Assembly: GCA_965204045.1 (NCBI GenBank)
Contig: CBDBDW010000002.1
Coordinates: 1,887,284 to 1,951,283 of the forward strand
DNA length: 64,000 nt
Origin: Gammaproteobacteria bacterium
Lineage (GTDB): Bacteria; Pseudomonadota; Gammaproteobacteria; Eutrophobiales; Eutrophobiaceae
Direction: 5' to 3'
Numbering within the stretch: the stretch's first letter is position 1; each line of letters starts with the position of its first letter. Below are positions 3,405-62,625 of the stretch, one piece after another. Below the pieces are notes generated by a model, which was not told the origin of the DNA, did no database searches, and saw nothing but the letters and a program-made list of their open reading frames with translations. Made by a program: the position numbers and the translations under genes.

Positions 3405-3423
3405 ATCTTGCGGGATTTGCATT

Positions 3424-3520
3424 CGCCATTCCCGCGCAAGCGGGAATCCAGTGAAACAAGGTGCCGCCCATGGCGACACTTTATTCGACCGGATTCCGGG
3501 TCAAGCCCGGAAAGACAACC
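3424..3520. repeat. Family-D REP-like element (ATTCCCGCG-N-CGGGAATCCAGTG type hairpins)
   Basis: 'cattcccgcgcaagcgggaatccagtg' plus a degenerate inverted partner 'ggattccgggtcaagcccggaaag'. The same architecture forms the core of the MITEs at 21130 and 27478. Confidence 0.7.
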
Positions 3521-3527
3521 AGAGTGA

Positions 3528-3587
3528 GGGGGACAGACCCCCGCTTACAACATGCGGGGGCATGCTTTGAATCTGTCCCCTTTTTTT
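3528..3587 (+). repeat. Family-B long palindromic element followed by a T7 tract (terminator-like)
   Basis: GGGGGACAGACCCCCGCTTACAACATGCGGGGGCATGCTTTGAATCTGTCCCC forms nested stems and is followed by TTTTTTT. It lies downstream of the receptor gene on the same strand. Confidence 0.75.
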
Positions 3588-3594
3588 CGTTCAC

Positions 3595-4650
3595 ATGACT
3601 GCAACCAGACGCTCATTTCTTAAAACATCGCTTGCGCTTCTGGCCGTCGGGACGCTTATTCCACAGATAGCCGGTTCTGCCGGAAACCGGTCCTTGCCCG
3701 GCGCGCAAGGGCGCAGGATACCCGTTATACTCGATTCCGACATCGGTGACGACATAGACGATACCTGGGCATTGCTGATGCTGCTTCGGTCCCCGCAGTT
3801 TGACGTGAAGCTCGTGGTAAGCGATTTCGGCAATGCCATATACCGCTGCCGCCTGTTTGCAAAGTTGCTGGAACTCACCGGTTGTACCCATATCCCAGTC
3901 GGAGTGGGGCTTGATCCGGTTGACGAACCAGGCAGGCAAAGCGGATGGATAGGAGATTACCGGCTGGAAGACTATCCAGGTACGGTGTACCGCGATGGTG
4001 TTCAAGCGCTGATCGATACGGTTATGCAATCTCCGGATCCGGTCACGTTGCTATGCGTCGGGCCCGTTCCGAATATCGCCGAGGCCCTCAGGCGGGAGCC
4101 TGCCATTGCGGGTAATGCACGTTTTGTGGGTATGCACGGTTCCATCTACAAGGGTTACGACGGCGCGGCGACACCGGCGGCAGAATGGAACGTCAAGTCC
4201 GACGCGACAGCGCTGCAACAGGTATTCGCTGCCCCCTGGGATTGCACCATCACGCCGCTGGACACCTGCGGACTGGTAACATTGACCGGCGCGAATTACC
4301 AGAGAATCTATCGCAGCGAAGATCCCTGGCTCAAGGCTTTGATCGAGAATTACCGGATCTGGCTACCCCTGGCGCCGTTCATCAAACCGGGGACTGATCC
4401 GGGCCTGATGAGCACGACCCTGTTCGATACCGTTGCCGTTCATGCAGCGTATTCGCAGGAATTCCTGGTGATGGAAGATCTGCCCCTGCGCGTCACGGAT
4501 GATGGCTACACCGTGGTGGACAGCCGGAACGGCCGTATCGTTCACTGCGCCACGAAGTGGCAGGACATCCAGGCGTTCAAAGACAGGTTAACCGATACAT
4601 TGCTCGGCCCAGAAGAAAAAAGGGGGACAGATTTAAAATCTGTCCCCTGA
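3595..4650 (+). CDS. Inosine/uridine-preferring nucleoside hydrolase family protein, Tat signal
   Basis: 351 aa. Twin-arginine leader 'TRRSFLKTSLALLAVG' and IU_nuc_hydro motif 'DSDIGDDIDDTWAL'. The last 9 codons (RGTDLKSVP) are encoded by a family-B palindrome. Confidence 0.8.
   Translation: MTATRRSFLKTSLALLAVGTLIPQIAGSAGNRSLPGAQGRRIPVILDSDIGDDIDDTWALLMLLRSPQFDVKLVVSDFGNAIYRCRLFAKLLELTGCTHIPVGVGLDPVDEPGRQSGWIGDYRLEDYPGTVYRDGVQALIDTVMQSPDPVTLLCVGPVPNIAEALRREPAIAGNARFVGMHGSIYKGYDGAATPAAEWNVKSDATALQQVFAAPWDCTITPLDTCGLVTLTGANYQRIYRSEDPWLKALIENYRIWLPLAPFIKPGTDPGLMSTTLFDTVAVHAAYSQEFLVMEDLPLRVTDDGYTVVDSRNGRIVHCATKWQDIQAFKDRLTDTLLGPEEKRGTDLKSVP
4622..4647. repeat. Family-B short palindrome GGGGGACAGATTTAAAATCTGTCCCC
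   Basis: 26-nt palindrome with GGGGACAGAT arms around a short central spacer, identical to the copy at 61325-61350. Confidence 0.9.
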
Positions 4651-4665
4651 CACTTGCAGCCACTC

Positions 4666-4717
4666 GAGACAGAACCCCGCTGACAACATGCGTGGGCATA
4701 CTTTAAATCTGTCCCCC
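4666..4717 (+). repeat. Family-B long element (degenerate copy)
   Basis: 'gagacagaaccccgctgacaacatgcgtgggcatactttaaatctgtccccc' aligns with the 3528, 22425 and 23097 copies. Confidence 0.75.
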
Positions 4718-10437: not shown

Positions 10438-10446
10438 CTTAGGAAT

Positions 10447-10929
10447 ATGCCCATGAATAATTATCTCTATATGCTCCTGGTTGCGTTGGCATTGCTCGCA
10501 AACGGGTGTTCCAGGCAGGACCGGCAGGTTGCATCCCTGCCGGATTTCGAACAACTGGTTCTTGAGGAATACATCGAGCCTTATAAAACAGGCGATACCG
10601 AGGGCTGGCTGGAGGTCTTCGCCGATGACGCGGTCGGCATGCACAACACGTTGCCGGCGCTGGAAGGCAAGCAGGCGTTGCGCGGGTTCGCGGAGACCAT
10701 CCACGGCGCTTTTGATATCGAGCAACTGGACGTAACAGTCGATTCCGTCATTACTGAGGGTGATTGGGCGCTGACCCGGGGCAACTATGTCGCCAGCTTT
10801 GTTCTCAAAGGTGAAGGTGTTGATGACCAGGCGGCCCCGCGGCAAGGCAAATACATCCTGTTATGGGAGCGCCAGGACGATGGGGCATGGAAGGTAATTC
10901 TGGATATGGGGAATAATAATTCGCCGTAA
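10447..10929 (+). CDS. SnoaL/DUF4440-like lipoprotein
   Basis: 160 aa. Signal peptide with lipobox 'LLANGCS', then an NTF2-like body. Confidence 0.55.
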   Translation: MPMNNYLYMLLVALALLANGCSRQDRQVASLPDFEQLVLEEYIEPYKTGDTEGWLEVFADDAVGMHNTLPALEGKQALRGFAETIHGAFDIEQLDVTVDSVITEGDWALTRGNYVASFVLKGEGVDDQAAPRQGKYILLWERQDDGAWKVILDMGNNNSP

Positions 10930-10962: not shown

Positions 10963-12549
10963 GTGGTTGGAGGAGGTACGGCCGGTTGCGTCGTGGCAGG
11001 GCGTTTGTCGGAAGACCCTTCCTTATCCGTTCTTCTGGTAGAAGCGGGCGGCAGCGACAGGCACCCTTTCAGCCGTGTTCCTGCGGCCAGCGGCGCCGCG
11101 GTCTTCAGTCCCCGGTTTAACTGGATGTACGAAGTTGAACCGGACCCGACCCGCTCCGGCAAGGCGGATAGCTGGTGGAGCGGACGTTGCCTGGGCGGAG
11201 GCAGCGCCATTAACGGCATGATGTTTGTACGCGGTCACAGGGATGACTACGATTACTGGTCGGACCTGGGTTGCGCAGGCTGGGACTATGCGTCGGTGCT
11301 GCCGTATTTCAGGCGCATGGAATGTAACCAGCGCGGCGAAGATGAATGGCGCAGCCGGCAAGGGCCCCATTCGGTGGAGGATCTGAACGTCCACAGCCCC
11401 CTGACTCGCGCCTGGGTCAAGGCTGCACTGCAAGCAGGCATTCCGGGGAGCAGCGACCTGAACGGAGCGAACCACGAGGGAGTAGACTTTATCCAGGTGG
11501 CCCAGCGCAGGGGATGGCGCGAGTCTGCGGCAACGGCATACCTCCATCCGTTTCGTAAAAAACGGTCTAACCTGCGTGTACAACTCAACACCCGGGTTAC
11601 CCGGGTCCTGTTTGACGGTAACAGGGCCAATGGCATTGAATTCATACGGGATGGGATCCGCCAACCCGGGAAGGTTATGGCGCGGGCCGCGATCATAATG
11701 AGCGCGGGCGCCATCGCCTCGCCAAACCTGCTGCAACTGTCCGGCATTGGAGATGCCGCGGCACTCAGCCGGTCAGGTATAACCTGCATTGCCCATTCGC
11801 CGGGAGTGGGTAAAAACCTGCAGGAACACACCGGTATCCGTTATTCGTTCGGCGTTAACGGGGAAACCCTGGGAAGCCGTACGGGACCATTGCGTAACCT
11901 GGCGCAGTTGTTTCAATTCCTGGTTAGTGGTAAGGGGTTGCTGACAACGCCAATCGCCCACGCCCACGCTTTCGTCTGCACCCGGGAGAAATTCAGGACA
12001 CCCAATGTTCAGGTTACCATGGCGCCGTTTCATATCGATATCGGTGACAACAGCGCCACCCTCAGCAAAGAAAAGATCGCAGGCGGTGCGGTCGGCCTGA
12101 TGCAGACTCGGAGCAGGGGAGAGATTACCTTGCGTTCTCCCGACCCGCTGGCGCCTCCCAGGATTCATTACCCGTTGCTGGACTCTGAGGAGGATATTGA
12201 ACAACTCATAGATGCTTGCCGGCTGGCCAGGAGGATCACCGAGCAGCCTGCCTTTGCCGGCTACCTGTCGCGCTGGCGTCATCCGGATGATGAGATGTTT
12301 GCCGGCGATCAACTCAGGGACTTCGTGAAGGATGCGGCTTTCCCCATGTACCACCCGGTCGGGACATGCAGGATGGGGCATGACGCACAGGCCGTTGTCG
12401 GCCCGGACCTTAAGGTAAGAGGTGTTGACGGGTTATGGGTCATAGACGCTTCCGTCATGCCGACCCTGGTCACCGGCAACACCAATGCCACGGTGCTCAT
12501 GATCGGTGAGAAGGGTGCGGACCTGGTGAAGTCCGCATTAGCCGGATAA
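10963..12549 (+). CDS. GMC family oxidoreductase (choline dehydrogenase-like)
   Basis: 'VVGGGTAGCVVAGRLSEDP' and 'GGGSAINGMMFVRG'. The conserved 'EYDVIVVGGG' strand continues upstream of the first GTG, so the true start may be the ATT at 10942. Confidence 0.85.
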   Translation: MVGGGTAGCVVAGRLSEDPSLSVLLVEAGGSDRHPFSRVPAASGAAVFSPRFNWMYEVEPDPTRSGKADSWWSGRCLGGGSAINGMMFVRGHRDDYDYWSDLGCAGWDYASVLPYFRRMECNQRGEDEWRSRQGPHSVEDLNVHSPLTRAWVKAALQAGIPGSSDLNGANHEGVDFIQVAQRRGWRESAATAYLHPFRKKRSNLRVQLNTRVTRVLFDGNRANGIEFIRDGIRQPGKVMARAAIIMSAGAIASPNLLQLSGIGDAAALSRSGITCIAHSPGVGKNLQEHTGIRYSFGVNGETLGSRTGPLRNLAQLFQFLVSGKGLLTTPIAHAHAFVCTREKFRTPNVQVTMAPFHIDIGDNSATLSKEKIAGGAVGLMQTRSRGEITLRSPDPLAPPRIHYPLLDSEEDIEQLIDACRLARRITEQPAFAGYLSRWRHPDDEMFAGDQLRDFVKDAAFPMYHPVGTCRMGHDAQAVVGPDLKVRGVDGLWVIDASVMPTLVTGNTNATVLMIGEKGADLVKSALAG

Positions 12550-16449: not shown

Positions 16450-16522
16450 GGGGTCAGAGTAAAATTTCCGGCGAGTTCCGGGGTCAGAGTAAGAATTTCG
16501 CCAGAAATTTTACTCTGACCCC
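16450..16522. repeat. Family-A repeat cluster (two direct arms + one inverted arm)
   Basis: GGGGTCAGAGTAAAAT, then GGGGTCAGAGTAAGAAT, then AAATTTTACTCTGACCCC. Confidence 0.9.
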
Positions 16523-18849: not shown

Positions 18850-18920
18850 GGGTCAGAATATGTTGGGGTCAGAGTAAAATCACCACTGGCAATGCTTTCC
18901 AGGATTTTACTCTGACCCCT
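18850..18920. repeat. Family-A repeat cluster
   Basis: 'ggggtcagaat', 'ggggtcagagtaaaat' and the inverted 'gattttactctgacccc', between convergent cysC and the dehydrogenase gene. Confidence 0.9.
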
Positions 18921-21129: not shown

Positions 21130-21345
21130 GTAACTACTCACCCCCACTCGTCCTTCCTGCACTTCTCCTCGTTCGTCATTCCCGCGCGCCCCCCGTCATT
21201 CCCGCGCAGGCGGGAATCCAGTGAAAAAAACGTCCCGAAGGGACACGTTATAAGGTGTCGCAAGCGACCCGTTTAACAGACTGGATTCCGGCCTTCGCCG
21301 GAATGACGAAGGGAGCGCGGGACGAACAGGGGGGTGAGTAGTTAC
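21130..21345. mobile_element. 216-bp MITE with IS66-type terminal inverted repeats (GTAACTACTCACCCCC)
   Basis: Perfect 16-nt TIRs flanked by the 8-bp direct repeat ACGGAAAT (21122-21129 and 21346-21353). The interior is built of family-D hairpins. It is the exact reverse complement of 27478-27693. Confidence 0.9.
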
Positions 21346-21352
21346 ACGGAAA

Positions 21353-21805
21353 TTAATATTCAATACGGGCTGCCTTTTCCATCAGTCTGTCAATCATATC
21401 GTTAAAGGTTTCAAGTTCTCCGGCGCTTAAATCGGATAACAGTTTCGCTTCGTAATCCCTGGCAATGGGCATCACTTCATCATAGACGGACAGGCCGGTC
21501 TCGGAAAGCCTCAATATTGAACGGCGCCGGTCTTTTTCATCAATGTCCCGGTTGACGAGATGGCGTTTCAGCAGTCGAGCCACGGCGCGGGAAACCACGG
21601 ATTTTTCGATTTTTGTGCGGCGGCAGACCTCGTCCGCAGATATGTCAGGGTATTCCGCCAGGATCATCATGATACGCCACTCCGGCATGGAAATGGCGAA
21701 CTTGTCACCGTACACGGCGGCAATGGCGCCACTGATTGCATTTGACAGCAGGGACAAGCGGTAAGGGAGAAACGCTCCCAGTTTCAGGGCTTTACGGTGT
21801 TGCAT
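21353..21805 (-). CDS. MarR family transcriptional regulator
   Basis: 150 aa with a MarR winged-helix pattern ('MPEWRIMMILAEYPDISADEVCRRTKIEKSVVSRAV..L'). Divergent from hppD. Confidence 0.85.
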   Translation of the reverse strand: MQHRKALKLGAFLPYRLSLLSNAISGAIAAVYGDKFAISMPEWRIMMILAEYPDISADEVCRRTKIEKSVVSRAVARLLKRHLVNRDIDEKDRRRSILRLSETGLSVYDEVMPIARDYEAKLLSDLSAGELETFNDMIDRLMEKAARIEY

Positions 21806-21831: not shown

Positions 21832-21898
21832 GGGGTCAGAGTAAAATCGTCTCTGACCCTGCCATTGGCAATATTCTACAGGATTTTACTCTGACCCC
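21832..21898. repeat. Family-A palindromic repeat pair
   Basis: GGGGTCAGAGTAAAAT ... GATTTTACTCTGACCCC in the marR/hppD divergent intergenic region. Confidence 0.9.
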
Positions 21899-21987
21899 AG
21901 GGATCGCACAATCCTGGTTGACAAAAGTTGTTTGTGCAACTAATATTAGTTGTAAATGCAACTATTTATCAGGATGAGGTTGACCGC

Positions 21988-23094
21988 ATGACAGACATCC
22001 ACAACCCGATGGGCACCGACGGTTTCGAGTTCATCGAATACACTGCACCCGACCCGGAATTGCTGCGTGACCTGTTTGAAAAGATGGGTTTCCCGGCAAC
22101 GGCGAAACATCGCAGCAAGAACGTGAGCTTGCATTCCCGGGACGATATCAATTTCATCATCAACGCCGAGCCGGACAGTTTCGCCCAGCAGTTTGCGGAA
22201 CAGCACGGGCCGTCCATCTGCGCGGTCGCCTTCCGTGTGAAGGACGCGGCCAGGACCTACGCCCGGGCGCTTGATCTCGGCGCGCATGGGGTGGAGGCCA
22301 GACCCGGACCCATGGAATTGAATATACCCGCCATAGAAGGAATTGGCGGCAGCCGCGTGTACCTGGTTGACCGCTACCAGGACAGGACCATCTACGACGT
22401 GGATTTCATTCCTCTTGAACTCCAGGGGACGGACCCCCGCTTACGACGTGCGGGGGCATGCTTTAAATCCGTCCCCGGACACACCGGTTTAACCTGCGTG
22501 GATCACCTTACCCACAACGTCCGGCGCGGCAATATGGACAGGTGGGCCGGGTTCTACGAGACACTGTTCAACTTTCGCGAGTTGAAGTACTTCGATATCG
22601 AAGGGAAGCTGACCGGCCTGAAAAGTCGCGCCATGACCAGTCCCTGCGGCAAAATTCGTATTCCAATCAACGAGTCCGCGGACGATAAATCACAGATAGA
22701 GGAATACCTGAGCGAGTATCGCGGCGAGGGCATACAGCATGTCGCCCTGGCCACGGATGACATCCATGCCAGTGTGGATGCGCTACGCCGTCACGGCGTC
22801 GTATTCCAGGATACGCCTGACAGCTACTATGCAGGGGTAGACCGGCGCTTGCCCGGTCATGGGGAAGACCTGGCAGCGCTTCAACAGCGCCGCATATTGA
22901 TTGACGGCGCCCCCACGGAAGGCCATGGCATACTGCTGCAGATCTTCACCGGGAACGTGATCGGCCCGATCTTCTTCGAGATTATCCAGCGCAAAGGCAA
23001 CGACGGCTTTGGCGAGGGCAATTTTCAGGCCTTGTTTGAATCCATTGAACTGGACCAGGTCCGGCGCGGCGTCCTGACGCAGGAATTACCGTAG
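21988..23094 (+). CDS. hppD: 4-hydroxyphenylpyruvate dioxygenase
   Basis: 'NPMGTDGFEFIEYTAPDP', 'VDHLTHNV' and 'FFEIIQRKGNDGFGEGNFQALFESIELDQVRRGVL'. ATG at 21988 with a GGATGAGG RBS. Contains a 17-codon insert derived from a family-B repeat. Confidence 0.9.
   Translation: MTDIHNPMGTDGFEFIEYTAPDPELLRDLFEKMGFPATAKHRSKNVSLHSRDDINFIINAEPDSFAQQFAEQHGPSICAVAFRVKDAARTYARALDLGAHGVEARPGPMELNIPAIEGIGGSRVYLVDRYQDRTIYDVDFIPLELQGTDPRLRRAGACFKSVPGHTGLTCVDHLTHNVRRGNMDRWAGFYETLFNFRELKYFDIEGKLTGLKSRAMTSPCGKIRIPINESADDKSQIEEYLSEYRGEGIQHVALATDDIHASVDALRRHGVVFQDTPDSYYAGVDRRLPGHGEDLAALQQRRILIDGAPTEGHGILLQIFTGNVIGPIFFEIIQRKGNDGFGEGNFQALFESIELDQVRRGVLTQELP
22425..22476 (+). repeat. Family-B long element inside the hppD coding sequence (in-frame)
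   Basis: GGGGACGGACCCCCGCTTACGACGTGCGGGGGCATGCTTTAAATCCGTCCCC. Positions 22426-22476 are 17 sense codons (GTDPRLRRAGACFKSVP). Confidence 0.85.
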
Positions 23095-23096
23095 CA

Positions 23097-23147
23097 GGGG
23101 ACGGACCCCGGCTTACAGCATGCCGGGGCAGGCTTAAATCCGTCCCC
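23097..23147 (+). repeat. Family-B long element
   Basis: GGGGACGGACCCCGGCTTACAGCATGCCGGGGCAGGCTTAAATCCGTCCCC immediately after the hppD stop. It shows compensatory changes in the inner stem relative to the other copies. Confidence 0.85.
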
Positions 23148-23153
23148 GGAGAA

Positions 23154-24143
23154 TTAACGTCTGCCGATGCCGCCTTTCGTTACGGAGGGCAATTCCCCGA
23201 AAAGCTGGTGGTAGTCCCGGGCAAAGCGGCCCAGGTGCCAGATGCCCCATTTTGCCGCGATGTCGCCCAGGGTGCCGGGTTCCCTCGACATGATTTCCCT
23301 CCGGATATTATTGAGACGCAGGGCCCTGATGTACCTGGCGGGGCTCATCTTGATGTTCTCATTGAATACGTATTCCAGCGTGCGCCGTGACGTCGTCAAC
23401 TCCTCACACAGTTTCCCGACGGTCAATTCCTCACAGATGTTGTCCTTGATGATGTCGAGAGCATCATGAAACAGGCGGTGGTGCCTGGTTATCGTGGTGA
23501 TGCCGGATTTAGTCCTGCTCTGATCCTTCCTTGTGATAAACACCGAACATATCGTTTCTACCAGGGCATTTTTCAGCGCCGCCAACTGGTTCGCGCTTTC
23601 CAGTGAAAGATGTGCCTTATCCGCCCCGGAATGGAAATCTTCCAGTATTGAAACCAGTGGCCGGGTTTCTTTTTCGTTCTGGATGAGCATATATGGAAGA
23701 TAATCCGGGCTGAACAGGTCCAACTCCCGGTACTGGTGTTGAAGTGCCCGCTTCAGCAAATCGCAGGAAACATGGACGATACAGATTTTCATGTCCGGGG
23801 ACGAGATGCCCTCCATCTCCGAACCGGGAGGTAAAATAAACGCCGCGCCTTTCGGGAAAGGTTCACAGTTCAACACCAGCGTCCTGTCGGTATTCATCAG
23901 CAGGCCGATTGCGTAGTAATCACGCGGGACCATGGCATTTTGATACAGCACCTGGTTGGTCTTCTCAAAGAACAGGCTTAGTTCCGGATCCACATCACAG
24001 GTGGTAAAAGTGCCGCGAAAAGAGCCCCTGCTGATCTGCTGGTAGGATTGATCGTAACCGGTCAGCCGCGCCGCCTGTTCATCGATGTCCCGGTGATGAA
24101 GTTTCCTGATCAGGGGGTTTTTTGCGCAAATCGGATAATCCAT
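23154..24143 (-). CDS. AraC family transcriptional regulator
   Basis: 329 aa. C-terminal AraC HTH '...LTVGKLCEELTTSRRTLEYVF...IAAKWGIWHLGRFARDYHQLFGELPS'. Confidence 0.85.
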   Translation of the reverse strand: MDYPICAKNPLIRKLHHRDIDEQAARLTGYDQSYQQISRGSFRGTFTTCDVDPELSLFFEKTNQVLYQNAMVPRDYYAIGLLMNTDRTLVLNCEPFPKGAAFILPPGSEMEGISSPDMKICIVHVSCDLLKRALQHQYRELDLFSPDYLPYMLIQNEKETRPLVSILEDFHSGADKAHLSLESANQLAALKNALVETICSVFITRKDQSRTKSGITTITRHHRLFHDALDIIKDNICEELTVGKLCEELTTSRRTLEYVFNENIKMSPARYIRALRLNNIRREIMSREPGTLGDIAAKWGIWHLGRFARDYHQLFGELPSVTKGGIGRR

Positions 24144-27477: not shown

Positions 27478-27693
27478 GTAACTACTCACCCCCCTGTTCG
27501 TCCCGCGCTCCCTTCGTCATTCCGGCGAAGGCCGGAATCCAGTCTGTTAAACGGGTCGCTTGCGACACCTTATAACGTGTCCCTTCGGGACGTTTTTTTC
27601 ACTGGATTCCCGCCTGCGCGGGAATGACGGGGGGCGCGCGGGAATGACGAACGAGGAGAAGTGCAGGAAGGACGAGTGGGGGTGAGTAGTTAC
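27478..27693. mobile_element. 216-bp MITE, second copy (inverted relative to 21130-21345)
   Basis: A base-by-base comparison shows the exact reverse complement of 21130-21345. The left flank is GGAGTAAT and the right flank is gccgtatc, so it has no target duplication of its own. Confidence 0.9.
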
Positions 27694-27704
27694 GCCGTAT
27701 CATA

Positions 27705-27802
27705 GTTCGTCATTCCTGCGAAGGCAGGAATCCAGTGAACAAACATTCCTTATAAGGAGTTTAATTGTCTACTGGATTCCTGCCTTCGCAGGAATGACGA
27801 AC
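27705..27802. repeat. Family-D REP-like inverted pair
   Basis: GTTCGTCATTCCTGCGAAGGCAGGAATCCAGTG ... ACTGGATTCCTGCCTTCGCAGGAATGACGAAC. Confidence 0.85.
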
Positions 27803-27841
27803 CTGGCGCGATTTACGACGTTACGTATAGAATGTTGGTAA

Positions 27842-29335
27842 CTACTCGCCCCCCTTATCCTGATTGGCCGGGTTATTCTGTGGTGGTTTCTCTACCATAG
27901 TGGCGGCGTTGCCGTTGAGTGCGATGTCGATGGCGGCGAGGGGATTGTAGCCCTGGCAGGCCATGGACTGCAAGTAGCTGGAGATACGGCAGTAGGCGGC
28001 GGCGTAGTCGGGGGTGCGGAAGCAGCCTGAGACTTTCTGTTTGACCTTGGCCATGCGGATATCGCGCTCGGCGCGGTTGTTGGTGAACGGCACCTCGGGG
28101 TCGCGGGCGAAGCGGAGCACTTCGGTTTCGTACTTGATAAGGGCCTCGTGCAGGTTCTCGGCATCGGATTTGGCGATGCGCCCGCGTCGTTTGGTCTGGC
28201 GGGGCGGGGGTTTGGGGAGTTCTCTTTTGGCCTGTGTGAGGAGGGTGCGGTAGCGTGTGCGCACGGCCTTGTAGTCGGGCTCGCTGAGCGCCTTGTCGGG
28301 GTGTTCACGCACCTGTCGGCAGGTCTTGAGCAGGAGTGTTCCCATGCGCCTGGCCCAGGCATGGCCGTGGGCCTCTTCGATGAAGCGGAGGTCGCGTAGC
28401 AGGTGGCTGCCGCACAGGGCATGCTCGCAGTTGTCATAGGCAAAGTAGCTGGCCCAGCGGTCGTGGACGAGGACGCCGCGGTAGCGGGGGATGATGTTTA
28501 ACTCATCGATGGCGTCGCGCCCGCGCTGTCGATGGACACACTTCAGCGTCAGGTGGCCGGCGCTGACGCTGTGCAGCCAGTGGGTCTTACGACCGATGCG
28601 CAGGCCGGTTTCGTCCGCGTGCAGCACGGGCTCGGCGAGCAGGCGTGTCACCGCGGCGGTCTCCCACCCGGCCAGGGCCTCGTGCAGGCGTGTGAGCCAG
28701 GCCAGCAGGGTGGCCTCGGCGAGTGTGCGTCCGGTCAGCGCCGCGAGGGTCTGTGCGGTGCGCCGGAGCGAGAGCATCTGGGCAGTCAGCAGGTGGGTGG
28801 CGAACGCCACGATACCGTGGCCGTACTGCAAGGGCCCCGGCATGTCCTCGGGGAACCGGCCGCGGGTCTCGGTACGACAACGCGGACAGGTCTTGACCTC
28901 GGCCTCGACCGTCAACTCACGCGTCTCGAAGACGATATCGACCTGCACGCGCCGCTCGTGCTCGTGCGGACTGACGTTGGTGAGTGCGTGTCCGCAGGCC
29001 CGGCACTCGGTGACCGGCGCGGTGCGCGTCTCAACCACCAGACGGTTGGCGCTGCCGTGGGCGGCGCCCGCCCGCGGGCCCTTGCCTTTGGCGCCAGGGC
29101 GCCCGCGCGCAGTCTCGTCCGTGCCAGTCCGGGAACTCGGCAGGCCGGAGTTCTGTGACCCCTTCGGCGTGGTCCTCTCCATGAACACCGCCAGCAGCAA
29201 CTCGAACAACAGCAGCATCGCCTCAAACAGGGCGCGGCCCTCGGGGGTCATCCTGCCGTCCGCGCACAGCGTCGCAAAGCGCGCCTTCAAGGCCTCGAAC
29301 TCCGTGCGCAACGAGGCTTTGTTTACCGTTGCCAT
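27842..29335 (-). CDS. IS66 family transposase (TnpC-type DDE)
   Basis: 497 aa. Zn-finger 'CRACGH...CPRC', 'HADETGLRI', 'CGSHLLRDL' and 'TNNRAERDIR'. The stop codon lies inside the left TIR. Confidence 0.85.
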   Translation of the reverse strand: MATVNKASLRTEFEALKARFATLCADGRMTPEGRALFEAMLLLFELLLAVFMERTTPKGSQNSGLPSSRTGTDETARGRPGAKGKGPRAGAAHGSANRLVVETRTAPVTECRACGHALTNVSPHEHERRVQVDIVFETRELTVEAEVKTCPRCRTETRGRFPEDMPGPLQYGHGIVAFATHLLTAQMLSLRRTAQTLAALTGRTLAEATLLAWLTRLHEALAGWETAAVTRLLAEPVLHADETGLRIGRKTHWLHSVSAGHLTLKCVHRQRGRDAIDELNIIPRYRGVLVHDRWASYFAYDNCEHALCGSHLLRDLRFIEEAHGHAWARRMGTLLLKTCRQVREHPDKALSEPDYKAVRTRYRTLLTQAKRELPKPPPRQTKRRGRIAKSDAENLHEALIKYETEVLRFARDPEVPFTNNRAERDIRMAKVKQKVSGCFRTPDYAAAYCRISSYLQSMACQGYNPLAAIDIALNGNAATMVEKPPQNNPANQDKGGE

Positions 29336-29339
29336 GGCC

Positions 29340-30017
29340 TCACTCCACTTCCACCGCCATCATCGCCGCCAACACCGCCAGGCGCTCCGCCGCCGGCAGC
29401 GCCCGGTAACGCCGGCCCCAGTTCGCCGCCTTGCGCTTGACCTGCTGGCGATGGGTGAAGTTGCGCCCCGCATACCCGGCCCAGAACACCCGGTCCGGCT
29501 CGAAGTTGAACCACACCCGCTCGGTCACCACCCCCGCCTGGTTCATCACCTGTAACGACACACGGCGCCAGCCCGACAGCCGCTCGTCATACAACGCCGA
29601 CGGATAGCCCGACACCATCACCGCACAGGGCAACCGCTTGAGCAGCGCCAGCAATGCCTCGTGGTCACCCTCGTCATAATCATGACGGTAACGCCGACCC
29701 GACTTGCGCGTGCTGTGCAAATATGGCGGGTCGCTGTATACCAACTCCGTGCCGTCAAACGGAAAATCCGCCAGAAACCGGTGGCAACAACCGTGTACCA
29801 GTTCCACCGGATAATCGCACTCAAACGCCGACAGCGCCCGCCCATCGATGTCAATCCCGATGTTGCGCAGCGCCGCCGGCTTGCGCCGCATGATGGCCCC
29901 GCCGCCCAGGTGCGTCTCAATGTACACACTGTGCGGCGGCATCAGCGCAATCAACGGCTGGCACAGCCCCGTCGTTGCTTTCGAACCGAGATACGCATTC
30001 CCCATGGCGCCTACCAT
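29340..30017 (-). CDS. D12-class N6-adenine DNA methyltransferase (Dam-like)
   Basis: 225 aa. 'YLGSK', AdoMet motif 'YIETHLGGGAIM' and catalytic 'VYSDPPY'. It ends 4 nt before the transposase ATG. Confidence 0.75.
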   Translation of the reverse strand: MVGAMGNAYLGSKATTGLCQPLIALMPPHSVYIETHLGGGAIMRRKPAALRNIGIDIDGRALSAFECDYPVELVHGCCHRFLADFPFDGTELVYSDPPYLHSTRKSGRRYRHDYDEGDHEALLALLKRLPCAVMVSGYPSALYDERLSGWRRVSLQVMNQAGVVTERVWFNFEPDRVFWAGYAGRNFTHRQQVKRKAANWGRRYRALPAAERLAVLAAMMAVEVE

Positions 30018-30105
30018 AGCGCCACAAAACTATTGTGTCAAGCGCTCCTTGCCTGCAAATTCAGGTAGAATTATCGGGTAGGGGGTGAGTAGTTACGGAG
30101 TAATT

Positions 30106-40015: not shown

Positions 40016-41303
40016 AGGAACCTCTATTAATTCAGTGTAATGATATAATACGGAGTACTGATTTCAACCCATACTTTCCTGTTTGAGGGTGCTGCCATGA
40101 AGAAGACTCAAGACCTGTTCGGTTCCTTTTTTGACTTGCAGGACGCCCGTTTGACGAAGCTGAAAGACCCGCTGGTGCAGTTGGAGGAGGTGGTGGACTG
40201 GGCGGCATTCCGTCCGTTGCTGTCCCGTCTCCGACCCACGGAGCGCAAGAGCAATGCGGGCGCCCCGCGCCGGGACGAGGTACTGATGTTCAAGGGGTTG
40301 GTGATACAGCACTTGTACGGCTTGAGTGATGAGCAGTTGGAGTACCAGGTAGAGGACCGGCGCAGTTTCCAGCGGTTCCTGGGGTTGGACAATGTCCATC
40401 GGGCGCCGGATGCGAAGACGTTCCGGGCGTTTCGGGAGCAGTTGGTGAAGTTGGGCCTGATGGAGGCGTTGTTCGAGCAGTTTGCCGGGCAGTTGGCGGG
40501 GTTGGGCTACCGGGCGCGCAAGGGGCAGTTGGTGGATGCGTCCCTGGTGCCGGCGCCGGTGCAGCGCAACACGCGCGAAGAGAATGCCAAGGTCAAGGCC
40601 GGGGAAGTGCCTGCGGACTGGGAGCAGGCGGACGCCAAGCCGAAGCGGCGTCAGAAGGACGTGGAGGCGCGTTGGACGAAGAAACGCGGCACGAGTCATT
40701 ACGGGTACAAGAACCACGTGAACGTGGACAATGCGCACAAGCTGGTACGCAAGTATGATGTCACCGCGGCCAACGTGCATGATTCGCAGTTATTGGATGA
40801 CCTGCTTGATGAGGACAACAGCAGCAAGGCCCTCTGGGCGGACAGCGCCTACCGGTCTGAAGAGCAGGAGCAGCGTTTGCGGGAGAAGAAGTATCGCAGT
40901 CACATCCGGCGCAAGGGCAGCCGTAACAAGCCGTTGACGATACGGGAGCAGCAGGGCAACCGCACCAGGGCAAAAGTACGGGTGCGGGTGGAGCACGTGT
41001 TCGGGGCGCAGTGTGCGACCCGCGCCAAGCTGGTCCGGTGCATCGGGCTTAAGCGCAGTGCGTTGGCCATCGGGATGATGAACCTGGTGTACAACATGCG
41101 CAGACTGTGTTACCTGCAAGGGGTCGGTGCGCCTGCTTGACGGGAAACAGGGATAAAACGGTGTCAAAACGACACCTGAGGGCGATAAAACGGCCCGATG
41201 ACGGGCGTATTGAGGTGATGCGGGTCTCTGCGCACCTTACTATAGACAAATATATGAAAAAGGAACCTGCTCAGACCTGAAATTATCAATTAATAGAGGT
41301 TCC
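40016..41303 (+). mobile_element. IS5-family insertion sequence
   Basis: 16-bp perfect TIRs, GGAACCTCTATTAATT (40017-40032) and AATTAATAGAGGTTCC (41288-41303), flanked by CTAA(A) on both sides (40011-40015 and 41304-41308). Confidence 0.85.
40097..41140 (+). CDS. IS5 family transposase (InsH-like N-terminus + DDE_Tnp_1)
   Basis: 347 aa. 'LVQLEEVVDWAAFRPLL', 'LSDEQLEYQVEDRRSFQRFLGL' and 'VDASLVPAP...WADSAYRS'. Confidence 0.85.
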   Translation: MKKTQDLFGSFFDLQDARLTKLKDPLVQLEEVVDWAAFRPLLSRLRPTERKSNAGAPRRDEVLMFKGLVIQHLYGLSDEQLEYQVEDRRSFQRFLGLDNVHRAPDAKTFRAFREQLVKLGLMEALFEQFAGQLAGLGYRARKGQLVDASLVPAPVQRNTREENAKVKAGEVPADWEQADAKPKRRQKDVEARWTKKRGTSHYGYKNHVNVDNAHKLVRKYDVTAANVHDSQLLDDLLDEDNSSKALWADSAYRSEEQEQRLREKKYRSHIRRKGSRNKPLTIREQQGNRTRAKVRVRVEHVFGAQCATRAKLVRCIGLKRSALAIGMMNLVYNMRRLCYLQGVGAPA

Positions 41304-46677: not shown

Positions 46678-46977
46678 TCAAGGTAGTTCTCTCTTTCTAC
46701 TTCTGTGGCGGACATGCAGCACTTCTACCGTATCACCCCGGATACGAAACAGCACTCGATATGGCCTCACAATAAGGTGTCGGATTTCATAACTTCGATA
46801 ACGGCTTTCAATGGCTATCGGACAACGCCTGGGATTTTCTTGCAGGGAAAGTATTTTCTCTTGGATGTTCCGGTACCAGCGTACCGCGTTGGTTATGGAA
46901 TCCTTGGCAATATAATCGAAATTATCTTCGAGTTCAGTGATGACTGAGGGCGGGATCCTGACCTTATAGGTCGGCAT
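46678..46977 (-). CDS. RelE/ParE family toxin
   Basis: 'MPTYKVRIPPSVITELEDNFDYIAKDS...YRVLFRIRGDTVEVLHVRH'. The ATG at 46977 overlaps the antitoxin 3' end. Confidence 0.8.
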   Translation of the reverse strand: MPTYKVRIPPSVITELEDNFDYIAKDSITNAVRWYRNIQEKILSLQENPRRCPIAIESRYRSYEIRHLIVRPYRVLFRIRGDTVEVLHVRHRSRKRELP

Positions 46978-47380: not shown

Positions 47381-47412
47381 TGTCATTCCGGGCTTGACCC
47401 GGAATCCAGTCG
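47381..47412. repeat. Family-D REP-like hairpin
   Basis: 'tgtcattccgggcttgacccggaatccagtcg'. It supplies the last codons and the stop of the VapB-like ORF. Confidence 0.75.
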
Positions 47413-47661
47413 ATAAACCTTCCTTATATACCGGTCCCGATCTTCCCGTAAAAGTTCAACGCTATCAGTTTGAATCCTGTCGGTCATACCGGAAATCTGT
47501 CGCGTCCGTTCCCGAAAGTCAGCAATATTGATGCGACGGTCGGCCCGTTGCGTCAGCATATAACGCACTTCTGCTTCGAGCGAACGCTGGTTTGTCCTGG
47601 CTTGCGCTTTTAACGTCTCGATCACGTTATCATCAAGGTTGCGGATGGTTAAGGTTCCCAT
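47383..47661 (-). CDS. FitA/VapB-like RHH antitoxin, orphan, with repeat-derived C-terminal extension
   Basis: 'MGTLTIRNLDDNVIETLKAQARTNQRSLEAEVRYML'. No PIN gene lies downstream. The tail '...RLDSGSSPE*' is read from the family-D repeat. Confidence 0.6.
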   Translation of the reverse strand: MGTLTIRNLDDNVIETLKAQARTNQRSLEAEVRYMLTQRADRRINIADFRERTRQISGMTDRIQTDSVELLREDRDRYIRKVYRLDSGSSPE

Positions 47662-47733
47662 GCTCTGATCTCCGGTTAAGGTGCAAGCAATATGCTGGCA
47701 TATTGATATCAACAAGGCAAATAATTCTGAAAA

Positions 47734-47820
47734 TCAGGGTGTTATGGAATCCCAAGCAATAAAATCGAAATTTTCTTCAAGTTCGGCGATGACTGAGGGA
47801 GAGATACTGACCTTGACCAT
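47734..47820 (-). pseudogene. Truncated parE/relE paralogue (first ~27 codons only)
   Basis: MVKVSISPSVIAELEENFDFIAWDSITP* aligns with the N-terminus of the ParE at 46977 (KVRIPPSVITELEDNFDYIAKDSIT). Confidence 0.6.
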
Positions 47821-59331: not shown

Positions 59332-59455
59332 TCAAAGAAGTGTTTTATTTTACCGGATTCCGGTGTTCGTCGGAATGACAACCGGAGCGCCCGAATAATG
59401 GGTGTCCTCAATTCATTGCAATTAGTTTCATTTGTAACTATACTGTTGGAATTAT

Positions 59456-59497
59456 GGGGTCAGAGTAAAAATTCTGCGGATTTCTTACTCTGACCCC
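59456..59497. repeat. Family-A palindromic repeat pair (short loop)
   Basis: GGGGTCAGAGTAAAAA ... TTTCTTACTCTGACCCC in the kynU/hmgA divergent intergenic region. Confidence 0.85.
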
Positions 59498-60889: not shown

Positions 60890-61339
60890 ATGAGCAAGCA
60901 GAACCCGTCTTTGAATTTGAAGGAGTTCCTGCCGTACCAACTGTCCATTGTCACCAACCGGATCAGCGCGTCCTTCGCCCGGCTTTACTCGGACAAGTTC
61001 AACCTGACTATTCCCGAGTGGCGGGTGATGGCCGTACTGGGACAACAACCGAACCTGTCTGCCGATGAGGTCTGCAGCGAGACCGAAATGGACAAGGTGC
61101 CGGTCAGCCGGGCGGTGTCGAAACTGCTGGACAAGGGCCTGCTCGACCGTGATTTTTCCGGAGACGACCGGCGCCGGTCGATCCTGCACCTGTCAGAAGC
61201 AGGTTACGGCATGTACGCGCAGATCGTCCCATTGGCGCTGAGTTATGAAGAGGAGTTGAAAGCGGTTTTGACTGCGGATGAGCAGTCGCAGTTGGAGAAA
61301 CTACTCGATAAATTAAGTCTGGAAGGGGGACAGATTTAA
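60890..61339 (+). CDS. MarR family transcriptional regulator
   Basis: 149 aa. 'IPEWRVMAVLGQQPNLSADEVCSETEMDKVPVSRAV'. The last codons (GGQI*) lie in a family-B palindrome. Confidence 0.85.
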   Translation: MSKQNPSLNLKEFLPYQLSIVTNRISASFARLYSDKFNLTIPEWRVMAVLGQQPNLSADEVCSETEMDKVPVSRAVSKLLDKGLLDRDFSGDDRRRSILHLSEAGYGMYAQIVPLALSYEEELKAVLTADEQSQLEKLLDKLSLEGGQI

Positions 61340-61350
61340 AATCTGTCCCC
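61325..61350. repeat. Family-B short palindrome GGGGGACAGATTTAAAATCTGTCCCC
   Basis: Identical to 4622-4647. Sits between convergent marR and the P450 gene. Confidence 0.9.
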
Positions 61351-62609: not shown

Positions 62610-62625
62610 GGGGTCAGAGTAAAAT
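62610..62625 (+). repeat. Family-A repeat, single arm
   Basis: GGGGTCAGAGTAAAAT between the P450 start and the AOR gene. Confidence 0.8.

Follow-up and report, generated by a model that had tools for sequence, protein, structure and literature searches.

Palindromic elements of Rickettsia (Rickettsia palindromic elements, RPE) reportedly lie in frame within conserved protein-coding genes, as Ogata et al. are said to have described in 2000 and 2002. The small dispersed repeats of cyanobacteria, which are mobile palindromic repeats of ~21-27 nt, are likewise said (Elhai et al., in 2008) to occur within genes and nested in one another. Hairpin-loop 'flip-flop' inversions at short inverted repeats are well documented in plastid DNA. 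Among the repetitive extragenic palindromes (REPs), superfamilies are defined by an asymmetric terminal GTAG or CGTC and a short unpaired tail (PMC3733652); a minority of these GTAG/CGTC REPs are found inside genes or at the termini of open reading frames (ORFs), where they add ~10-30 residues (Di Nocera et al. 2013, PMC3733652), and the small elements RPE-4 and RPE-6 have been classed as CGTC REPs (PMC3733652). Coxiella burnetii carries the palindromic, non-autonomous elements QMITE1 and QMITE2 (Wachter et al. 2018, PMC5896051). Here, we describe a 52-nt palindromic element of a repeat family that we call family B, which lies in frame within hppD, the gene for 4-hydroxyphenylpyruvate dioxygenase (HPPD), on a 64-kb stretch of gammaproteobacterial DNA (hereafter, the window). 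As the sequences compared below show, the element in hppD is a lineage-specific in-frame repeat and one allele of a multi-allelic site shared by a clade, not private to the source genome.

The 52-nt string GGGGACGGACCCCCGCTTACGACGTGCGGGGGCATGCTTTAAATCCGTCCCC lies exactly at window positions 22425-22476 on the plus strand, where it forms a two-tier palindrome in the inter-domain linker of HppD. No such match was found in shuffled sequence, and none is expected by chance. An earlier reading of this DNA, made from the letters alone (the sequence-only reading), had placed a palindromic element in frame inside hppD and counted 17 stop-free codons in it; both points hold: the 52-nt match is exact, the surrounding TIGR01263 ORF is intact, and the element is read as residues 147-163 of the enzyme. 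The gene and the parts of the element are as follows, with the basis for each in brackets.

21988-23094, plus strand: hppD coding sequence, 4-hydroxyphenylpyruvate dioxygenase, 368 aa (TIGR01263, 1CJX alignment, ratio of nonsynonymous to synonymous substitution rates or dN/dS, Fe ligands)
22425-22476, plus strand: long family-B palindromic element, HppD residues 147-163 (GTDPRLRRAGACFKSVP) in element frame 2 (match, fold, contig ends)
22425-22433, plus strand: left arm of the outer stem, GGGGACGGA, which pairs with 22468-22476 (fold, covariation)
22434-22456, plus strand: inner hairpin, CCCCCGC-TTACGACGT-GCGGGGG (fold, covariation)
22457-22467, plus strand: 11-nt asymmetric bulge CATGCTTTAAA after the inner hairpin (fold)
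22468-22476, plus strand: right arm of the outer stem, TCCGTCCCC (fold, covariation)

As a single strand, the hppD element takes a fold in which an inner stem of 7 bp stacks on an outer stem of 9 bp, with a 9-nt loop and a one-sided bulge, at a calculated energy of -36.3 kcal/mol (z -4.97 versus shuffles). In 9 distinct long copies, taken from the window and its relatives, 95% of stem cells are paired. Outer-stem pair 7-46 shows a compensatory change from G-C to A-T between copies, inner-stem pair 14-28 changes from C-G to G-C in the copy at 23097, and the covariation score, from this small sample of 9 copies, was equalled in 1 of 500 shuffles. This pattern indicates that the family-B hairpin has probably been maintained across copies. 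When the six reading frames of the long form are compared, frame 2 alone stays open whichever way the element is turned (forward GTD...SVP, reversed GTDLKHAPARRKRGSVP), and a TAA usually interrupts frames 1 and 3. Public sequence data place the ends of the repeat: a contig from run X1 is identical to the window across 22080-22679, and each of four DNA runs yielded 46-108 contigs (108 in X1) matching a 1351-nt stretch, mostly in the element only, with the summed word depth over the element in X1 reaching ~75x that of its flanks. Homology among these contigs breaks at 22424/22425 and at 22476-22479, and the repeat unit is therefore exactly the palindrome. We considered a terminator role for the genic copy and rejected it, as the copy is followed by no T-run and has no terminator-like score. 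If the genic hairpin is read through, the expected product is the insert-derived peptide GTDPRLRRAGACFK.

By every sequence test the gene around the element is functional, and purifying selection on it is strong. Its start, placed by orthologue alignment, is the ATG at 21988 (MTDIHNPMG...). The protein scores 378.8 bits against the 4HPPD equivalog TIGR01263 (cut-off 277), aligning to profile positions 2-353 of 353, and is 54% identical to the HPPD of P. fluorescens (1CJX; E 7e-125). Residues H173, H251 and E331 are invariant in 120 orthologues and align to the Fe(II)-binding 2-His-1-carboxylate triad of 1CJX (His161/His240/Glu322). Outside the linker, pairwise dN/dS is 0.05-0.15 in every pair of hppD genes, and comparisons between alleles that both carry the element ('filled' alleles) give 0.05-0.11 at a synonymous divergence (dS) of 0.35-0.76. 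With selection purifying and the catalytic residues intact, hppD does not look like a pseudogene, which the sequence-only reading had named as an outcome that would undo it.

An AlphaFold2 (AF2) model of HppD, built from a 120-sequence alignment, has a mean predicted local distance difference test score (pLDDT) of 83.1 and a predicted TM-score (pTM) of 0.84; a 40-sequence alignment had given a pLDDT of 46.5 and was unusable. By Foldseek, the model matches 1cjx_A with E 1.7e-46 and TM 0.86/0.90, and it has the two-domain vicinal-oxygen-chelate fold. Inside the chain, pLDDT drops below 50 only at residues 151-161; this is the core of the insert, and strands 140-142 and 168-177 enclose it. The model thus predicts that the insert is disordered and looped out, with the Fe site and the two barrel domains undisturbed. 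The suggestion that the insert might be a surface loop fares well as regards the loop, and we infer exposure at the surface for an inter-domain linker that is likely permissive. In sponge metatranscriptomes, related hppD alleles appear as low-depth contigs; one contig spans the linker and is 42 nt shorter there than the window, which is the length of the allele that has no element (the 'empty' allele).

Loci for comparison were collected by scanning GTDB representative genomes with HppD, which gave three close relatives, and by retrieving the others by protein; the orthologue alignment comprises 120 clusters at 71-100% identity. The host clade consists of uncultured Gammaproteobacteria known as metagenome-assembled genomes (MAGs), and most runs that contain this hppD are metagenomes of sponge, coral or marine origin. 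Element-derived residues are present in 15 of the closest 16 clusters (84-92% identity) and in none beyond them. The alignment proposed from sequence alone therefore bears out a lineage-specific insert, and no repeat-free orthologue among the 120 clusters has a homologous 17-residue segment. The segment from YDVDF to GL, in which the element lies, is hypervariable in sequence; in the 105 element-free clusters it is unrelated to the insert, and in most of them it is ~12 residues long. At the linker codon position, the DNA of close relatives (numbered loci, L) shows five states.

Empty allele, ...GTT GAG GTC GAT CAC AAC GTA ATG CGC ACA GGT...: L001, L002, L084 and L086
Short allele, 25 nt, read as GTDFKSVP: L081, and L090, whose copy of this form has 9+9 additional nt
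Long forward allele, 52 nt: the window and L085
Long reversed allele, 52 nt, GTDFKHAPAWCRRGSVP: L082
Nested allele, two short B copies around a 67-nt repeat of another family (family A), 42 extra codons in frame: L083

In net residues, the states form a series of empty, +5, +14 (in both orientations) and +39. The sequence-only reading had described 17 extra codons, whose removal would leave a linker of Pseudomonas length. The element does comprise 17 codons, yet measured against the nearest empty alleles the protein is 14 residues longer on balance (368 vs 354 aa), because the linker that remains after excision has 8 residues from DF to TGL, against 11 in the nearest empty alleles. Nor does the excised linker match Pseudomonas, as the P. 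fluorescens enzyme has 13 residues between DF and GL. Filled alleles do not have 9 nt of native linker that are present in the empty alleles, and every filled allele is flanked by CTC CAG on the left and GGA/GAA CAC on the right, unlike the empty allele. Because these non-native flanks are common to the filled alleles, we favor one ancestral linker insertion, followed by change within the element and lateral spread; a single origin of the linker insertion is thus probable. The same linker allele occurs in the independent assemblies P0002/L085 and P0003. Some alleles are decaying: P0011 reads GADFKSVP, P0014 KSFP and P0013 RTDHRLHNAGACLESVL.

When the remainder of the HppD protein is used to build a tree, filled alleles are mixed with empty ones, because hppD is a recombination mosaic, and the same mosaic structure implies that the linker alleles were spread by recombination. 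The window and L085 are 79-86% identical over most of the remaining gene and 95-98% identical over a central 400 nt that includes the element. In one metagenome, L082 (long reversed) and L084 (empty) are 96-100% identical except for the linker patch and its immediate flanks. Runs X2 and X3 contain minor empty-allele contigs beside filled-allele contigs, and sponge metagenome X4 contains an allele that is 27 nt shorter, the short form. Empty and short alleles are found together in identical or similar samples. Along the gene, the identity of the window hppD to L085, L083 or L002 jumps every few hundred nt, from ~80% to 95-100% or back.

A second multi-allelic family-B site lies 0-17 nt past the hppD stop codon, with the following forms.

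Long forward: the window and L002
Short, 24 nt, with flanks identical to those of the long alleles of the window and L002 (CA on the left, GGAGAATTAACGTCTG on the right): L086
Short: L081
Long reversed: L001 and L085
Short variant with a AATTAATT loop: L082 and L090

In several relatives, HppD runs into the 3' copy and acquires C-terminal tails such as ...GEGDGINSVP. The linker copy (10438-10489) and the 3' copy (11124-11175) of L085 are 52/52 identical and inverted around the C-terminal half of hppD, and directly beside the 3' copy are 7 nt left over from an older left arm. Such an arrangement points either to a recent copying event within the family or to an element that re-inserted into a palindrome already there, and the inverted pair creates a substrate for inverting the 3' half of hppD.

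The 64 kb hold 6 copies of family B, 3 of which overlap coding sequence. The copies other than the one in the hppD linker are listed below.

3529-3580, plus strand: long copy, the family reference, intergenic and followed by a T7 run in a terminator-like context (repeat search, fold)
4623-4647, plus strand: short form, 25 nt, outer stem and loop (repeat search, terminator scoring)
4665-4716, plus strand: degenerate long copy with an eroded left arm, 89% to the reference (repeat search)
23097-23147, plus strand: long copy, 51 nt, of a CCCCGGC-stem subfamily, 2 nt past the hppD stop (repeat search)
61326-61350, plus strand: short form, which in frame 3 gives a MarR-family gene (60890-61339) its TAA stop (repeat search)

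The short form is a perfect palindrome of 24-25 nt, GGGGAC[A/G]GA-loop-TC[C/T]GTCCCC, that is, the outer stem of the long element with a small loop; the long form, of 51-52 nt, has a second GC-rich hairpin and a bulge inside that loop. The hppD copy is 81% identical to the reference copy, the copy at 23097-23147 has 67% gap-free identity to it, and the copy at 4665-4716 folds no better than shuffles (z -1.06). The three long copies outside the linker are those that the sequence-only reading had put at 3528, 4666 and 23097, give or take one nucleotide. That reading had also assigned the C-terminus of a nucleoside hydrolase to the same frame of the element, and the frame is indeed the same, although the copy there is the 25-nt short form and not the full 52-nt element: in frame 2, the IU-nucleoside hydrolase at 3595-4650 (PF01156) takes its final 8 codons (GTDLKSVP) from positions 4623-4647 and terminates ...EEKRGTDLKSVP*. 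The same short-form sequence, GGGGACAGATTTAAAATCTGTCCCC, is found at 4623-4647 and 61326-61350, and the minus strand of 4623-4647 presents a terminator-like hairpin with a T-run to the convergent gene.

Family-B copies in relatives occupy similar positions. An abhydrolase gene is ended by a short copy whose frame 3 gives the stop codon, and on the related metagenomic contig L091 (400-460) a long copy at the queA-tgt junction forms, at the DNA level, a frame-2 C-terminal tail of QueA, with the queA stop codon overlapping the tgt start codon. The QueA tail came from a profile search of proteins and was confirmed in DNA. That search, with a profile of the 3 open element frames against a set of 5.8 billion proteins, gave 4 candidates, a figure that is no count of the family because the word-index retrieval missed even HppD. 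Likewise, an exact metagenome scan for GGGGACRGACCCCSGCTTAC returned 3 contigs, too few for a family survey. We considered the inner hairpin as an independent mobile module and rejected it, since the hairpin never occurs outside the outer palindrome in ~275 kb of window and clade loci. Because the copies elsewhere sit at gene ends, where they supply tails and stops, family B is mainly a gene-end hairpin repeat, of which the hppD copy is a rarer mid-gene survivor. In a sponge metatranscriptome (runs X24-X26, compared with window 21900-23250), more than 30 contigs carry family B, at ~100x the depth of the hppD flanks. This abundance is consistent with transcription of family B at mRNA ends, with carry-over of DNA as the alternative.

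Taken together, these data are probably explained by family B being a non-autonomous hairpin repeat of REP type or of the type of MITEs, the miniature inverted-repeat transposable elements, one that is tolerated in the hypervariable hppD linker and whose alleles were spread by recombination. Most copies lie at gene 3' ends, overlapping stop codons, where they can act as terminator or RNA-end hairpins. One copy would have entered the hypervariable linker of hppD in the ancestor of part of the clade. It may have survived because the linker is permissive and presumably surface-exposed, because it landed in element frame 2, the only frame open in both orientations, and because the extra residues would form a disordered loop that spares the barrels and the Fe site. 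In-place changes would later have produced short and long, forward and reversed forms and the nested family-A insertion, and related lineages would have exchanged linker alleles by homologous recombination. For the short/long and forward/reverse changes we favor hairpin-mediated template switching or loop inversion, together with copying or gene conversion among copies. The insert in hppD is likely neutral, or tolerated.

Several observations weigh against this account. No target-site duplication is seen at the hppD linker site, and no clean empty/filled pair with unchanged flanks; because 9 native nt are gone, the account has to suppose that a deletion accompanied the insertion, or that an ancestral linker went unsampled. 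No transposase or REP-associated tyrosine transposase (RAYT) with matching ends was found in the window (64 kb) and ~200 kb of relatives. Among the metatranscriptome contigs examined, the insert-bearing hppD allele was not seen as RNA. Finally, the palindrome is perfect in 6 of 6 filled alleles for which DNA is at hand, though dS of the gene is ~0.6, which could mean that the hairpin is selected and not neutral. The latter point, together with a very stable hairpin placed exactly between two domains and the abundance of family-B copies in sponge-metatranscriptome contigs, speaks for co-option of the genic copy, with either the mRNA hairpin or the loop peptide under selection (as a translational pause during which the N-terminal domain could fold first, as a site of RNase processing or stability, or as a loop with a regulatory role). 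Yet the peptides and hairpins differ between the forward, reversed, short and nested alleles, so that no single peptide or structure is conserved at the linker; many close relatives, some in the same samples, carry the empty allele and do well; some filled alleles are decaying; and recombination or gene conversion explains the intact palindrome equally well. We therefore regard co-option as improbable. Only slightly better are the prospects of a scenario in which the filled alleles, here and at the 3' site, are independent insertions into a hot target instead of one changed insertion. The interspersion of filled and empty alleles in the gene tree, the occurrence of short, long-forward and long-reversed forms at two orthologous sites, and the left-arm remnant in L085, which suggests re-insertion into an existing palindrome, would all fit it. 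However, separate hits would not reproduce the common non-native flanks and the same 9-nt loss, and mosaic recombination accounts for the interspersion; this scenario, too, is unlikely.

A more speculative proposal, to which we give a small chance, less than to either of these, is that family B is a self-targeting 'flip-flop', with the short palindrome as a landing pad that gains, loses and inverts the inner module and accepts other repeats. If so, family B would naturally diversify the linkers and C-terminal tails of symbiont proteins, and identical inverted pairs such as that in L085 could toggle genes by inversion. Very hard to sustain is the idea that the segment is no insertion at all, but a native linker that resembles the repeat, an assembly error or part of a pseudogene. 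In favor of this idea, orthologues have linkers that are hypervariable in both sequence and length, but the match to intergenic copies spans the full 52 nt, with none expected by chance, the same allele recurs in independent assemblies (P0002/L085 and P0003) and in the X1 contig, and the reading frame and catalytic residues are intact at a dN/dS of ~0.1. Thus, a tolerated hairpin repeat spread by recombination remains the account that we favor.

Synteny of marR, hppD and the araC gene is kept in all relatives, and a gene for fumarylacetoacetate hydrolase (FAA hydrolase) is present within the window. The neighboring genes, together with the other repeats and mobile elements noted, are given here.

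21353-21805, minus strand: MarR-family regulator, divergent from hppD (context, Pfam)
23154-24143, minus strand: AraC-family regulator, convergent with hppD (context, Pfam)
360-426, 1023-1037, 16450-16522, 18865-18919, 21832-21898, 59456-59497 and 62610-62624: family-A copies in the window
L083 10467-10533: family-A copy nested in frame in the hppD linker
3410-3452, 21180-21322, 27501-27643, 27705-27802 and 59352-59394: repeats of type CGTCATTCCCGCGCAGGCGGGAATCCA, mostly head-to-head dimers
27838-30096: IS66-family element with 16-nt inverted repeats GTAACTACTCNCCCCC and a transposase gene at 27842-29335 on the minus strand
40017-41303: IS5-like element with perfect 16-nt inverted repeats GGAACCTCTATTAATT and a DDE_Tnp_1 + DUF772 transposase at 40097-41140

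The second palindromic repeat, family A, is MITE-like (GGGGTCAGAGTAAAATC...GATTTTACTCTGACCCC, 42-73 nt), and its termini (GGGGTCAGA) resemble those of family B (GGGGACAGA). One copy lies between marR and hppD, just upstream of the promoter-like site of hppD, and a copy in the spacer between the octopine dehydrogenase gene and marR is present or absent among relatives. Repeats of the CGTCATTCCCGCGCAGGCGGGAATCCA type fit the description of CGTC-1 REPs, with a CGTC tag, a stem starting AT and a CCA tail (PMC3733652), a class that includes the Neisseria dRS3 repeats (PMC3733652). Two elements of ~216 nt (21130-21345 and 27478-27693) have the IS66 ends GTAACTACTCNCCCCC with CGTC REP dimers inside, and they therefore look like MITE derivatives of the IS66-family element. 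An insertion of ~3.2 kb between the abhydrolase gene and the gene for a thiamine pyrophosphate (TPP) enzyme is absent in L081 and L082. Next to a FitA-like antitoxin gene (47383-47715), a 74-nt direct repeat (46892-46965 and 47741-47814, 85% identity, 849 nt apart) may stem from duplication of toxin-antitoxin modules.

The hppD case adds, for bacteria other than Rickettsia, a clear and well-controlled instance in which a conserved enzyme contains the translation of a selfish palindromic repeat. What lifts it above the routine is an allelic series at one position, with both orientations and a nested repeat, and in-place turnover at two orthologous sites. The series shows what an inter-domain linker tolerates, and it is directly usable for work on linker tolerance and co-translational folding in HPPD, an herbicide and drug target. 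Family B is itself of interest for its two tiers, short and long, and for its lack of a GTAG/CGTC tag. For the annotation of symbiont MAGs, stops and C-terminal tails supplied by repeats and polymorphic gene lengths call for caution.

How does family B compare with the known classes? The plastid flip-flop resembles it in presenting both orientations between short arms at one locus, as the long form does at the linker and 3' sites, but the former is a mutational process and not an element family, and a similar process is here suggested by the alleles themselves. Cyanobacterial small dispersed repeats are reportedly alike in size, genic sites and nesting; the phylum and the sequences differ. The likeness to in-frame genic insertions of RPE, drawn in the sequence-only reading, is apt as regards behavior: both are dispersed palindromes that are in frame, translated, compatible with function and polymorphic in presence among relatives. 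By sequence and host, family B is no RPE. RPE-1 is ~100-150 nt long and its hosts are alphaproteobacterial obligate intracellular bacteria, whereas family B has a gammaproteobacterial host, its own 52-nt consensus and forms of 24-52 nt that are perfect palindromes with G4/C4 ends, mostly at gene 3' ends; there is no sequence similarity between the two, and no Rfam family matches anywhere in the window.

Like the GTAG/CGTC REPs, which are hairpins of 20-40 nt mostly by ORF 3' ends, with gammaproteobacterial cases that include Thioalkalivibrio and Xanthomonas (PMC3733652), family B is a short palindrome with many dispersed copies near ORF 3' ends, in forms of 24-25 and 51-52 nt. CGTC REPs have no dedicated transposase (PMC3733652); for family B, among 20 of the 54 long window ORFs, those scanned against Pfam, we found no cognate RAYT (Y1 transposase). 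In contrast to REPs, family B has no asymmetric GTAG/CGTC outside the stem (its ends are a symmetric GGGG...CCCC, with CGTC within the stem) and no CCA tail, its stems are 9-12 bp instead of 8-9 bp, and its long form has a second hairpin nested in the loop. As in MITEs, the 52-nt element has terminal inverted repeats (TIRs), which are perfect over 9 nt, and carries no gene itself; at the ~12 family-B copies inspected, no flanking direct repeat was seen that would mark a target-site duplication like that of a DDE-type MITE. The IS66-family and IS5-like elements were considered as sources of a partner transposase and rejected, since within the window their TIRs (GTAACTACTCNCCCCC and GGAACCTCTATTAATT) differ from, and are unrelated to, the family-B ends. 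QMITEs share a gammaproteobacterial host with family B, overlap ORF ends, give C-terminal residues or stops, are occasionally in frame mid-ORF, and show strain-to-strain inversions at orthologous loci; unlike family B, they are much longer, have TIRs and direct repeats and serve as insertion sites for IS1111, with no sequence similarity.

We did not find family B described in the literature searched. An in-frame palindrome had been called unusual for a gammaproteobacterial-type genome, which overstates the case, as intragenic REPs and MITEs occur in Thioalkalivibrio, Xanthomonas, Pseudomonas and Coxiella (PMC3733652, PMC5896051). Because in-frame palindromic repeats are known from Rickettsia, Coxiella and many REP families, gammaproteobacterial ones included, the hppD case is a tolerated selfish-repeat insertion in a permissive linker and not a new mechanism, and among small palindromic repeats family B is best placed as a family of its own, a new one, whose behavior is like that of REPs and RPEs.

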